Shown: positions 4,816-28,049 of the stretch, piece after piece
Layout of the letters: the number at the start of each line of letters is the position of its first letter
Position numbering within the stretch: the first letter of the stretch is position 1
From: Eledone cirrhosa
Taxonomy: Eukaryota
Length of the DNA stretch: 64,000 nucleotides
Direction: 5' to 3'
NCBI GenBank assembly: GCA_964016885.1
Contig: OZ024743.1
Coordinates: 173,104,001 to 173,168,000 of the forward strand
The notes under the pieces: generated by a model
The model's input: only the letters and a program-made list of their open reading frames with translations
Databases searched by the model: none
Told to the model about the DNA's origin: nothing
Position numbers and translations under genes: made by a program

Positions 4816-6177
4816 GTTAAAGAAGAGAGCAAAAGAAGAGAGCAAAAGGAAGAAAGGAGCACTTGCAAAACACGCTCCTGGAGTTGAGGGTTGTTCTATC
4901 GATTGGGTATTAAACAACCCATTTGTGCCCCCCCCCCCCCCTATTGGGGATTTCGATTGTTGTAATTGTTTGTTTTTATATTTTTTACACTTTTACACGA
5001 CTGTATGTAAAATCCCCGGCATGTCTTTGTATTGTCCCCTTTTCTTGTGCGCCCTTGTGGCTAATAAAGAAATATATCTATCTATCTATCTATCTATCTC
5101 AGATAGTCTGGACGTGTACTACTTTGCTGGTAAGTTTTTTGTTAATTTTGCATGCAAAAAACAGAAACTTTTTGTTAAAAAATACATTGTTTCGTAGATT
5201 AACCCTGAGGCTGAATTGTCAGCTGGGCGGTAAGCTCACTTTTCGCCCAACGAGGGCGGAAATTTTATTTGAAAACATTTTGAAAAGCTAAAATATAGAC
5301 GTCACTATGATGACAAGTAGTGAAAATAAAGATCTGTTTCGCAATAAAAGCGAAAAATGCAACTCACAAGTTGGACCACACAGCTCACAACAGACATAAA
5401 AAACCATAGAAAATGAAACAATTTACACAACTACAAACGAAAAAAGTGACAACCGCAACAACAACACCAAAAAACATAACATTTGCACAAACAGTCATAA
5501 ACAAACAAGACTTCAAGGATCTCGATATCTCCAATGCGAGACAGATGCTTTCTGAAGCAAAGGAATTTATTATTTTCGGAGAAAACGGTGGGTTTAAGCT
5601 AAACTCACCCCCAGAAATTCGTCTTGAAACACTTCGAACACTTCAGAACTGTTTCAAATGAAACAAGAAAGCCGGCATTCCTCAGTCAAGGGGAAATAGA
5701 AACAACCTTGAAGGAGGTTTTGCTGGATATAGACTTTATGCAGAGGGCCAGACAGTATGCTCCTCAAAAGCAAGGCCATCGCACAGAAATATTCAGTGGT
5801 ACCAATATTTTCGAAGAAATACACCTTTTTCCCTACTTACCTGGGAAAAAGGAGCCAAAAAACAAAATTTCCAACTTACCACCAAATATTAATATTTGGT
5901 GGATATTGGCAGGATTTTTAGAGGAGGAACAGAACACCATCCTCTCCATCAAGAAATCAACCAAACACACGTGCTCTTGTACAAATTTGGAGATTCTGGT
6001 TCAAATGAGGCCGGAGAGAATCTCCAAAATACCTGAAAAAGTGCTGGTGGACAACAACAGCCACATAAACATTTCAGTTGAAGGAGTGAGACCACACTGC
6101 TTTCGATGTAACAGTACATCGCATCTAAAGGCCTCCTTCACTTTACAGACACACTTTAAAAAAACAATCCAATTAAA

Positions 6178-6347
6178 ATAATTGTTTATACTTTTGGCAC
6201 AAGGCCAGCAATTATCCCAGTACATTACTGGTACTTAATTTTATCGACCCCGTAAGGATGAAAGGCAAAGTTAACCTCGGCGGAATTTGAACTCAGATCG
6301 TAAAGGGACGTAACTATGCTGGAAAGCATGTCCGACCCTCTACTGCT
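6178..6347 (-). mobile_element. tRNA-derived SINE (Meta-domain-like core), head partly deleted
   Basis: Same family as 27665-27845; B box GAGTTCAAATTC and core GCCTTTCATCCTTACGGGGTCGATAAAA on the minus strand. Confidence 0.85.
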
Positions 6348-6350
6348 AAA

Positions 6351-6539
6351 AATAATTGTTTCTACTTTAGGCACAAGGCCAGCAATTACCCAGTGCATTA
6401 CTGGTACTTTATTTTATCGACCCCGTAAGGATGAAAGGCAAAGTCAACCTCGGCGGGATTTGAACTCAGATCGTAAAGGGACGTAACTATGCTGGAAAGC
6501 ATGGCGTCCGACCCTCTACCGATACTGCCAATCCACCCT
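6351..6539 (-). mobile_element. tRNA-derived SINE, full length, subfamily A
   Basis: A box TGGCAGTATCGG, B box GAGTTCAAATCC, core domain, tail GGCCTTGTGCCTAAAGTAGAAACAATT. Confidence 0.9.
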
Positions 6540-8455
6540 CTACTGCTAAAAATAATGTTACCAACACCAACACCAGAACCACCACCACCACAACAACAAG
6601 AGCACCACACAAAACAAGCAAACACACCAAAACAAACAGCCACTCAACCAACAACAACAGAAAAAAAACGGACAGCTCCCCTGAAGAACACAGTCCCACC
6701 CCATCCCACTCCATCCAACACTTCCACAAACACACACACAAAAACACCATCACCACACAACATACCCCTATCGCACACGCCTGATGACGATTATTCATCA
6801 ACAGACGAAGCTACTTCTCCATCCCCAAGCGAGGATGAAAGAGAGCCGCGGAAAAAAAAAGAAACACGTAAAGCCACAAAAACACCAATCACCGACACAA
6901 ACAACAACACAAACAACACCACAATCAACCCCCCCCCCCTACCAGCAAAACAAACACCAACACCACCCTAAACACAAACACCCACCATAAAAAGAAAACT
7001 CCCAGATGAACAACAAACAAAAACAACACAACAAAAACACAAACCATAGTACGCATACATCAACACCACCAACAAAAACCTGATGGAGACCGAGGGGAAC
7101 ACTTTCGTGAAATCAGGATCAGCACCACACCTGAAATTGATAAGAGTTCCTATGGAAACTTATAACAACCTGAAATATGAATTTTCACAGGACGTCGGAA
7201 ACCCCTGCCAAAAACCCATAAACCGCGTCCTATTAAAATGTTCCCCACCCCACCCAACACCCCCACCAGCACCCAAATGGAGATTGAAAAACCCGATCTC
7301 CAGGAATCGAAAAAGTAAGTGCATCTTTTCGTCCTTTTTCGCCCTGGAAACAGGGCCAACTTTTAAACGACATTAGGTCACACGGTATGGATGTGATAGC
7401 CATCACCGAGTGCAGGATCCACAACAGGCAGCAACTAACCCCCATCTTCAATGACTTTGAGATCTACGCATCTCTCTGTCAGCCGGGGTGGAGGGGGAGT
7501 GACTGTCATGTACAGCAAGTACACTTGGACCCGGAGGGTAGACTGGTAGTCCTAGACGTGAACAGTGTTGGAGGTGGAGCCTTCAGACTGGTGGCCGTTT
7601 ATGCCCCGACTGGGAAATCACAGCCAGACTTCTTTAAGCGTCTAGAGTCTTTTCTGGGAACGTCTCGCTCCTTGCTTTTAGTGGGGGACTGGAATGGTAC
7701 CCTAGACGCACGATGGGACTATGTAGGAGCATGTCCCAGTAGAGGGGGGTGCAACAGCCTCAAACATTTAATCGGTCAATTCCAACTGGCCGATAGGTAT
7801 CGACTAGATTTACCGACTGCACCACAGTGGCCATGGACAAACCGCAGCGGGACATCTAGATGGTATTTAGAGATGTTCTTTATGAGAGAGAGAGACAAGA
7901 TGTTAAGCTGTCCAGAAATGTACAAAGTTGCCTATTCAGACCACAAACTAGTCATCTGCATAGTCAATCATGATAGAATATATAGACAAGGATCCGGATA
8001 CTGGAAGCTGAACATGTCGTTACCGACACGTAAAGCCTACAGTGAATGGATAAGTAGATTAGTTAAGCAACAGTTGACGTGAGCCATCGTCAACAATAGA
8101 TGGTGGTACTCTTTCAAGAGAACAATTAGAGTAAAATCGATAGAGTCGATAGCTTTTAGTAGAGAACTAGCCTCGAAGTAAATCACGTGCTCTAGGAAAC
8201 GAAGGAGCAAAAGCTGTTAGCTGGGCCCGAGTGGCAGAGGCGAAAAGTAGCAACAAGTCCATGATTCGGTCTTTGAAAGAGCAAAACGGATGCGTGCTAC
8301 TTGACTCCAAGCGGATGTGCGCGGCCTTTCAGCAGCACTTTGCGCAACTGCTCGAGCAGAGCGGCGGTGCGCTGAACGGGACAATGGACTTCGGTTCATA
8401 CCTCGAGAGCCTGCTGCGTCTCTCGAGCATGGACGCCGAGTTCTGCGAAAATACA

Positions 8456-8640
8456 CACAAATAGACACATTATATATATATATACATACACACACATATA
8501 TATACACACACATACACATATATACACAGATACATATAACCTATATATATATATATATATATATATATATGTATATACACATACACAAACACACACATAT
8601 ATATACACATGCATACACATACACAGAGACATATAACCTA
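8456..8640. repeat. Compound (TA)n/(CA)n microsatellite
   Basis: Directly visible. Confidence 0.95.
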
Positions 8641-26512: not shown

Positions 26513-26616
26513 TGTTTCTAGTTTTGGCACAAGGCCAGCAATTACCCAGTACATTATTGGTACTTTATTTTATCGACCCCGTAAGGATGAAAGGCAAAGT
26601 TAACCTTGGCGGGATT
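26513..26616 (-). mobile_element. 5'-truncated SINE with 15-bp TSD
   Basis: TSD TGTATGTATAATAAT at 26498-26512 and 26617-26631. Confidence 0.9.
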
Positions 26617-26625
26617 TGTATGTAT

Positions 26626-27237
26626 AATAATGCTTTCTTTATTAACCACAAGGGTTTACACAAAGTAAGACATTAAGGACAGTACAGGACAATACAGGAT
26701 GATACAAATGGGCATTTCTACGTGTAAAAAAAACGAAAACAGAGGATGTAACAAAAAAAGAACAATGAAAAATTCCCCAATAGGGGGGAGACTTCCGAGG
26801 GCCATCGTGGAGAAAGCCCATTAAAAAAAGCCACGGTGACCCTGACCACCAGGGCAAGTGCCCTCTCCCAGTTTTCCACCTTCAATTTACAGGCACATAC
26901 TCAGAGTAGGCCCATTCACTCGGGCCATTCTTGCCTCTCTCACCCATCTTTCAACAAAATGCTGGGAAGAGAGCACTTCCCTCTCTACCCTGATTTTCCT
27001 TTTCAAATGAAATTTGAAAAAGTTAATCAGGGCATCACCGAAGAAGTAAGTGCTCATCTTCAGCCCTTTCAGATGCGTCCACCATACTATCTCTTTTGCC
27101 ATGGCCACCAGACAGATAAAAACTGCCTGCCCTTCCCGGTTAAAGGAAGAGGGCGGGGCAATCCTCACGATGGACTCAGCTGATAGTCGGATCTGTTCTA
27201 CACGCAACAGCAGGTGTTCGACATAAACCCACAAGTC
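26626..27237 (-). mobile_element. L1-Tx1 3' fragment (related subfamily)
   Basis: ORF 26887..27234 (QIRLSAESIVRI..VFICLVAMAKEIVWWT) is homologous to 4520-4800; ends ACCCTTGTGGTTAATAAAGAAAGCATTATT. Confidence 0.85.
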
Positions 27238-27664
27238 AGCAATGCTCGGACACTGGATGAGTGCGTGCAGGAATAATGAAAATTATTGCATTATAACTGT
27301 TGTTCTTTGATTTTATAAAATCGCTATCAACTAACATATATGTAGACATAGATAGAGTGACAATGTGACAGATATATATATATATACTAGAACTTTTGTT
27401 TTCATACACTTCAGCCGCGCATTGTGCTCCAACCACTGTTGTCATGACTACCTCATACTTATTGCTCTCTCAGCTTATCCCTCAGCTTATTGCTCTCTCC
27501 CTATATCTGATGTATGAAATAGCAGATGATCATACATTTATATGTATAAATATAATCACGCAAAACAGACACACTTACAGACATGCATTCAAACATTCTT
27601 AACTGGTAATAGGTATTTTTATCGCTATATCACATCGATTATATATCATTATATATATAAAGGT

Positions 27665-27845
27665 CGGTGGATTGGCAGTATCGGTAGAGGGTCGGACGCC
27701 ATGCTTTCCAGCATAGTTACGTCCCTTTACCATCTGAGTTCAAATCCCGCCGAGGTTGACTTTGCCTTTCATCCTTACGGGGTCGATAAAATAAAGTACC
27801 AGTAATGCACTGGTAATTGCTGGCCTTGTGCCTAAAGTAGAAACA
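27665..27845 (+). mobile_element. SINE subfamily A, full length, 17-bp TSD
   Basis: A and B boxes; TSD ATTATATATATAAAGGT at 27648-27664 and 27846-27862. Confidence 0.92.
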
Positions 27846-28049
27846 ATTATATATATAAAGGTTCATATATTTCCATCGTTCTTTCATAACGTTTATAATA
27901 ATCTGTCTCTCATTTATTTCAAACACATTTATTTCAAAGATTTCTTTTCTTTGTGACAGCTATATATATATTTTTTTTCGTTTTAACATATATTTATTTC
28001 TAAGATTTCACCATAGAAATAGCATATATTTATACATACATGACAGAAA

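Follow-up and report, generated by a model that had tools for sequence, protein, structure and literature searches.

An abundant SINE of Eledone cirrhosa shares its 3′ tail with L1-group LINEs: a candidate Tx1-driven SINE

Which long interspersed element (LINE) copies the abundant short interspersed element (SINE) of the mollusc Eledone cirrhosa? The question is raised by a stretch of 64,000 nucleotides (nt) of its 3.0-Gb genome (assembly GCA_964016885.1, contig OZ024743.1, positions 173,104,001 to 173,168,000; the whole stretch is called the window below). This 64-kb window is a patchwork of repeats, with pieces of L1-group and RTE-like LINEs, remains of Helitron and hAT elements, and 12 places that match one SINE (Table 1). 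A sequence-only reading had noticed that a full-length copy of this SINE ends like two L1-group LINEs nearby and had proposed that it is mobilised by a tail-recognising Tx1 element. The comparisons described here suggest that the SINE is probably copied in trans, with recognition of its tail, by the protein of the second open reading frame (ORF2) of L1-group, likely Tx1, LINEs that land in ATT repeats. The proposal stands in this form through the ranking of tails, the overlap in age and the ATTAT junction of one LINE class, whereas the copy from which it started, at 5051-5072, belongs to a class that lands in TCTA repeats and is an unlikely driver.

The similarity lies at the very end of the elements. 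SINE positions 27822-27843 align without gaps to the LINE end at 5051-5072, with 17 of 22 bases identical, and the probability of this in a fixed register is 3.7e-7 under the base composition of the genome. The tail also aligns to the second LINE end (26626-26655, minus strand) at the same distance from the terminus, with 20 of 30 identical bases, or 15 of 24 if only the bases before the ATT run are counted; in the SINE, as in the main LINE families, the hairpin described below stands 13 nt from the terminus. Both alignments are thus as the sequence-only reading had given them. Among random genomic 24-mers lying directly before ATTAT, a score of 15/24 is reached by 3 of 2125 against the tail of the short form of the SINE and by 2 of 2125 against that of the long form; the former three may themselves stem from decayed copies. 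In the second LINE end, ATTATT is both the normal terminus of its family (24 of 25 loci) and the 5′ copy of the 16-nt target site duplication (TSD) of the SINE at 26513-26618. Because it is a family terminus, the view that it is no more than the duplication of that SINE was rejected.

The shared tail is a family trait and not a property of two copies. All eight Tx1-type family ends tested score 14-18 of 24 against the last 24 bases of the SINE, every one in the terminal register (shuffle p 0.003-0.06). By comparison, 18 ends of other LINE families reach at best 9-15 of 24 anywhere in 110 nt, none of them 15 or more at the terminus; the sole 15/24 among them lies 57 nt upstream. Over these 26 family ends, in a census that is incomplete, no sampled family outside the Tx1 type matches the SINE better, in line with the pairing first proposed. 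The other ends were gathered by an RT (reverse transcriptase) family search, three RT motifs and a protein search, and were then fetched and read. The census was motif-based and took mostly the first matches on one chromosome, in the case of one motif the first 100 out of 691. Families of the L2, Crack, Nimb and R2 kinds were not positively sampled (a PF09004 search came back blank, its control being silent too), several of the other ends rest on one to four decayed copies, and the CRE-like end is placed approximately. The clade names of these families (CR1-like, RTE-like, Dong/R4-like, Ingi-like, Hero-like and CRE-like) are presumptive and go by sequence motifs.

Several other partners were considered and rejected. 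The Dong/R4-like families, with 6808 motif matches, have unrelated ends and an opposite orientation in repeats. A young CR1-like family that ends in ATT scores 10/24 and has no terminal duplication in 14 truncated copies read by eye. RTE-like partners, including the family that bears a PHD finger, and Ingi-like, Hero-like and CRE-like ones have tail scores at chance level. In about 0.75 Mb, 11 tails stood apart from any recognised SINE body; inspection by eye assigned all of them to SINEs that are truncated or diverged, and no LINE was among them, in that sample and with no genome-wide search made. Hairpin plus AATAAA occurs in none of 80 distant L1-group loci from metagenomes, many of which lack their 3′ end, and the motif is therefore not generic to L1-type ends. 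Separately, many frames in a random sample look Penelope-like by motif (L086, L089, L093, L098, L121) and stand outside the set of ends ranked against the SINE tail.

Within the tail, the SINE and the Tx1-type LINE ends have in common a predicted hairpin of 11 bases, with a stem of three base pairs and a 5-base loop. Two of the five mismatches between SINE and LINE face each other across this loop and form a compensatory swap in the predicted stem: the middle pair is C-G in the LINEs; 168 of 176 SINEs of the short form and 28 of 33 of the long form have G-C instead. The outer pair also varies: one LINE family has A-U, in 35 of 36 copies, where the others have G-C. The full set of three pairs is preserved by 16 of 22 LINE clusters and by 91-97% of SINE copies. 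In an alignment of 29 natural tails, 93.8% of cells are paired, which none of 500 shuffles reaches, while slid controls stay at or below 52%; RNAalifold, unaided, predicts the same three pairs, and the hairpin appears in the predicted folds of seven LINE families and of the long SINE. Its positions are also the best kept of the tail in the SINE (94-100%, compared with 77-86% for the spacer). Specific reading of the loop, together with a stem that can be swapped, is described for zebrafish L2 elements (PMC4176376). A kept loop on a swapped stem is likewise the pattern seen between the SINE and the Tx1-type tails.

The LINE families that carry this end belong to the L1 group. In the young subfamily described below there are two ORFs in 6 kb, with the domains PF03372 (endonuclease), PF00078 (RT) and PF13966 (zf-RVT), and the best relative among solved structures is L1 ORF2p (1e-42), compared with 1e-17 for R2. 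Membership in the Tx1 clade is likely, and a preference for microsatellite targets fits it; among the 120 homologues listed for the LINE protein, the closest named one is from Argonauta hians (73% identity), and none is a named Tx1 element. A collection of 97 Tx1-type ends in 1.3 Mb falls into 22 clusters, in which the upstream untranslated regions differ and the terminal motif is the same; AATAAA is invariant in these ends and was itself a requirement of the collection. The ends form two landing classes: TCTA-type repeats, not ATT, follow the 3′ end in all listed copies of one class, and ATT repeats follow it in 24 of 25 loci of the other, that of the fragment at 26632. A single Tx1-type radiation split into (TCTA)n and (ATT)n target classes with its 3′ hairpin kept is, in its own right, a natural test set for endonuclease specificity.

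One subfamily of the ATT class is young. It is about 6 kb long, all of its 40 top matches are 99-100% identical, and ORF2 is open for at least 1150 amino acids in 27 of the 40. Young full-length copies (n = 32) have an ATT run on both sides. The 5′ run is never shorter than 14 nt (median 24.5 nt; 14-21 nt in 13 of the 32), and the 3′ run is longer (median 43.5 nt), the 5′ run being the shorter one in 24 of 32 copies. Such runs fit, although they do not prove, a cut close to where a run begins and a duplication of some 14-21 nt; in single copies with imperfect repeats duplications are visible, for instance one of 23 nt at locus L063.

Target sites and timing connect the SINE with this ATT class. 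The 3′ flank starts with ATTAT in 168 of 209 SINEs and 48 of 52 ATT-class LINEs, but in 0 of 45 TCTA-class LINEs. Within the 60 nt behind the LINE end, a SINE begins in 12 of 52 ATT-class cases and in none of 45 TCTA-class cases, a clustering due to the shared target alone. SINE use of ATT runs (7/51) is about fivefold enriched over the available sites (54/2044); a low count of such runs in the 30 youngest SINEs was set aside because the query included the AT-dinucleotide flank of the window copy. As to timing, the youngest SINEs (98-100% identity) and the young ATT-class LINEs (99-100%) are equally young. The sequence-only reading had named differing target motifs and non-overlapping activity as grounds for abandoning the pair: activity overlaps, and the targets agree in part, with ATTAT in common and the LINE far more tied to long ATT runs.

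The (ATT/TAA)n microsatellites are a common landing zone also for unrelated elements (L166-L185, L246-L285). Dong/R4-like copies lie there in one orientation, and the ATT-class Tx1-type LINEs, the young CR1-like family and the SINE in the opposite one, which produces tail-to-tail and head-to-tail arrays. At some junctions both an ATT run and a TSD are absent, with a SINE tail set against a truncated LINE or a LINE end against a SINE head (L068:-, L074, L077); target deletion and template switching are candidate explanations.

The passenger itself is short, non-coding, dispersed and of high copy number, as expected of a SINE, and bears the marks of retroposition, namely TSDs, 5′ truncation and a fixed 3′ end. 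It exists in a short form (n = 176 tails), mostly 2-9% diverged from the majority sequence, and an older long form (n = 33 tails; 6-24%), which ends in the same tail but has about 30 bases more in front of it. The top 30 genome matches of the window copy are 98-100% identical to it. With 51 tails per 400 kb of random sequence, or about one per 8 kb, the copy number comes by extrapolation to several hundred thousand. Long TSDs had been attributed to the SINE from the start, and they are indeed found: 45 of 85 full-length copies with non-simple 3′ flanks have TSDs of 9-24 nt (median 15 nt), against 11% of shuffled pairs. These 85 come from a set of 117 full-length SINEs that was partly picked for likeness to the copy in the window and to the flank of that copy. 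The reconstructed empty site is a pyrimidine-rich stretch, then ATTAT, then T or A. The tRNA-like head is a tentative reading of A- and B-box-like motifs, compared by eye with a consensus; ARAGORN made no call on it and Rfam gave no meaningful match. The label "Meta" expresses a presumed resemblance. Between the 5′ TSD copy and the head, 0-14 extra bases, mostly AT-rich, are often present, both in the copy at 27663 and in other full-length copies.

A plausible course of events can be outlined from these features. The SINE would be transcribed by RNA polymerase III from its tRNA-like head, and ORF2 would bind the shared hairpin, as modelled, with its 3-bp stem and 5-base loop. The target would then be nicked before ATTAT, and target-primed reverse transcription could begin with the help of pairing to a terminal AUUAU of the RNA, and the TSD would arise from a second nick at a distance of about 15 nt. 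If AATAAA serves in ending the RNA polymerase II transcript and not in recognition, its loss from the SINE would be expected. The ATT-landing class, represented in the window by the fragment at 26632-27272, is the likely driver class, given its ATTAT junction and its young subfamily.

Several observations weigh against this reading. The homology covers only 24 nt at 60-75% identity, less than the 35-61 bp shared by SINE/LINE pairs of bivalves (PMC11481361). The best raw score (18/24) belongs to a family of the TCTA class, the SINE lacks the AATAAA of the LINEs, and the incomplete LINE census does not exhaust rare or extinct elements. As for structure, the 60-nt minimum-energy fold of the short SINE is an alternative one, and the covariation amounts to about two independent double changes in a stem of only 3 bp, in an alignment from which the three LINE clusters 10, 14 and 16, shifted by 1 nt in register, were dropped and which does not extend to clusters 17-21. 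TSDs of truncated LINE copies do not exceed the control (9/26, the shuffled pairs giving 38%), since repeats lie on both sides. Regarding targets, 35 of 40 young LINEs lie before a perfect ATT run of at least 9 nt, compared with 7 of 51 SINEs sampled at random; the SINE lands mostly at single ATTAT sites and the LINE prefers long runs. In addition, the shared ATTAT may itself stem from RNA-DNA pairing and is therefore not independent of the tail. The mismatch in targets would reflect either relaxed targeting in trans, for example through shorter RNA-DNA pairing, or a driver from an unsampled sister family.

The latter explanation, in which the SINE took its tail from an ancestor of the Tx1-type radiation and is now driven by an unsampled or recently extinct sister with a looser ATTAT target, appears unlikely. 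It would account for the single ATTAT sites, for the absence of any sampled family above 18/24, and for a middle pair and spacer that are unlike those of every sampled LINE; further, 22 end clusters within only 1.3 Mb imply that more families exist. Nevertheless, relaxed targeting in trans explains the target difference as well, and the driver of several hundred thousand SINEs, some of them 99-100% identical, should be recent, which the abundant and intact young ATT family is. Even a sister family would leave the driver Tx1-type. Quite unlikely is a missed, unrelated clade (Nimb/I, CR1-Zenon, L2 or similar) with the Tx1 likeness being convergent or a relic. Nimb and CR1-Zenon do serve bivalve Meta SINEs as partners (PMC11481361), the donor is unknown for a tail that a MetaSINE of a cuttlefish has in common with one of a cnidarian (PMC4824008), and this possibility draws on the clades missing from the sampling and on the young CR1-like family, which also ends in ATT repeats. 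Set against it are the chance-level scores of the 18 other ends, the 10/24 of that CR1-like family and its lack of terminal duplications by eye, and the opposite orientation of the Dong-like ends within repeats; moreover, convergence would have to yield an identical loop, a stem with compensated pairs and an equal spacing of 13 nt. It is very unlikely, finally, that Tx1-type ORF2 needs only an AUUAU end pairing to the nicked target, with the hairpin as a passenger or as an aid to RNA stability or 3′ end formation. SINEU elements are proposed to use Tx1 with a poly(A) tail only (PMC4494074), and a 3-bp stem that is not part of the minimum-energy fold of the short SINE and, in the LINEs, lies directly beside the poly(A) signal could be read in this way. 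Yet the hairpin is the best-kept part of the SINE tail, and its pairing is restored after a double change although the SINE has no AATAAA.

Table 1. Features of the window that bear on the SINE and its proposed LINE partners, with other LINE pieces.
Feature	Positions	Strand	Remarks
Decayed L1-group (Tx1-type) LINE, TCTA-landing class	1..5074	+	5′ end beyond window edge
ORF1 frame of TCTA-class LINE	48-1181	+	
ORF2 (endonuclease, RT) of TCTA-class LINE	about 1392-4812	+	Disrupted by stops and frameshifts
3′ end of TCTA-class LINE	5051..5074	+	AATAAA 5063-5068, then TCTA-type repeats
Predicted hairpin in TCTA-class LINE end	stem 5051-5053 / 5059-5061, loop 5054-5058	+	
Second TCTA-class-like LINE piece (ORF1 and endonuclease part)	5489..8455	+	Two SINE copies inserted at 6178-6537
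5′-truncated ATT-landing-class LINE	26632..27272	-	87% amino acid identity to C-terminus of young-family ORF2
Hairpin of ATT-class LINE fragment (predicted)	26655-26645	-	Outer pair A-U
Full-length short-form SINE, about 185 nt, tRNA-like head	27663..27845	+	
A-box-like / B-box-like motifs in SINE head	about 27672-27684 / about 27737-27747	+	By eye
SINE tail in common with LINEs	27822..27845	+	Predicted stem 27822-27824 / 27830-27832, loop 27825-27829 (5 bases), 13-nt spacer
3′ TSD copy of SINE, 17 nt, begins ATTAT	27846..27862	+	5′ copy 27648-27664, 2-nt overlap with head
5′-truncated SINE directly behind ATT-class LINE end	26513..26618	-	TSD 16 nt
Two SINE copies, nested or tandem	6183..6537	-	TSDs 10 and 24 nt
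5′-truncated SINE copy	10426..10551	+	TSD 17 nt
Full-length SINE copy	33237..33418	-	TSD 15 nt
SINE copy	44053..44218	+	TSD 11 nt
Older long-form SINE	44944..45086	-	Same tail, set off from the body by about 30 further bases
SINE copy and tail-only fragment	49175..49419	-	
SINE copy	51189..51365	+	TSD 15 nt
Full-length SINE copy	63314..63497	-	TSD 18 nt
RTE-like PHD-bearing LINE pieces	16213-17382, 24739-25941, 34833-36631, 40702-41520, 62467-63169		

The remainder of the window holds other kinds of repeats. The RTE-like family is abundant, has a PHD finger directly after the RT core in the same frame, and ends in GAT repeats. Remains of Helitron (Helitron_like_N, PIF1), hAT (DUF4371, dimerisation domain) and zf-BED sequences lie at 28054-31869, 17760-18368, 38021-39594 and 48303-48674. 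Two long open frames have no Pfam match, at 12353-14771 (303 amino acids) and 46493-48364 (minus strand; 406 amino acids); the latter, beside the zf-BED frame, is probably a DNA transposon.

Whether tail recognition is ancestral in the L1 clade, and how mammalian L1 shifted to poly(A), has been posed as an open question (PMC3747384, PMC4176376). A young and intact animal L1-group family, a tiny predicted hairpin and a natural compensatory variant in the SINE make the matter of tail recognition directly testable. If the proposed pairing is true, a likely engine would be named for a SINE that occurs about once per 8 kb, and a microsatellite-targeting endonuclease would scatter its passenger to much looser sites; an animal case would also be added to the known tail-sharing L1 cases, which come from plants and an alga. 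We lean, by little more than even chances, towards a broader view. In it, an animal L1-group (Tx1) radiation would be stringent, reading an 11-base hairpin by the poly(A) signal, and a SINE family that ranks among the most abundant of the genome would be built on that hairpin. If this SINE is a MetaSINE, the missing partner of a cephalopod MetaSINE tail would then be named, and a minimal, testable model obtained of RNA recognition by L1-type ORF2 before the mammalian switch to poly(A).

Some parts of this picture have precedents. L1-clade elements had been treated at the outset as usually dependent on poly(A), with CR1, L2 and RTE as the well-known partners of SINEs; tail-sharing L1-clade LINEs are rare but known in plants and a green alga, with only three tail-sharing SINEs reported among more than 800 L1-clade LINEs surveyed (PMC3747384). 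The pairs of maize/sorghum and of Chlamydomonas (SINEX-3_CR / L1-1_CR; Ohshima 2013, PMC3747384) resemble the present one in an L1-clade 3′ hairpin with compensatory changes that is common to the SINE, but have poly(A) termini and about 45-80 nt of shared sequence. In the UnaL2 and ZfL2-1/2 pairs (Hayashi 2014, PMC4176376), as here, there is a shared 3′ end with a kept loop, a swappable stem and a short repeat terminus. Those LINEs, however, are of the L2 clade and experimentally proven, whereas here they belong to the L1 group, the predicted hairpin is smaller and the TSDs are long. MetaSINEs (Nishihara 2016, PMC4824008) and bivalve HCD SINEs (PMC11481361) likewise combine a tRNA head, a conserved body and an exchangeable tail, and the MetaSINE superfamily is defined by a Meta domain of 66 bp that follows the head. 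As of 2016, the LINEs that partner MetaSINEs were stated to be unknown (PMC4824008); those of bivalve Meta SINEs, unlike the partner proposed here, are Nimb and CR1-Zenon (PMC11481361), and Tx1 does not occur in the main texts of these two papers. An annotation of Octopus vulgaris describes recently active L1-Tx1 families and SINEs but, in the part available, does not pair them (PMC13282606). Thus a Tx1-driven SINE and tail-sharing L1s are each known, and a description of their combination in animal L1-group elements was not found in the literature within view, to which subscription papers, Repbase entries and figures do not belong. The Tx1-driven case is SINEU of crocodilians, assigned to Tx1-Mar from shared targets (Kojima 2015, PMC4494074). 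Like SINEU, the Eledone SINE is proposed to be moved by a Tx1 element with target preference; unlike SINEU, which has a small nuclear RNA head and a poly(A) tail, with no Tx1-derived tail given in the available text, it has a tRNA-like head and a shared structured tail. Finally, as Kibi and Koshi of fish (described in PMC4494074), the LINEs of the present study are Tx1-type elements that land in microsatellites, although the targets there are (TC)n and (TTC)n and here, in a mollusc, (ATT)n and (TCTA)n.

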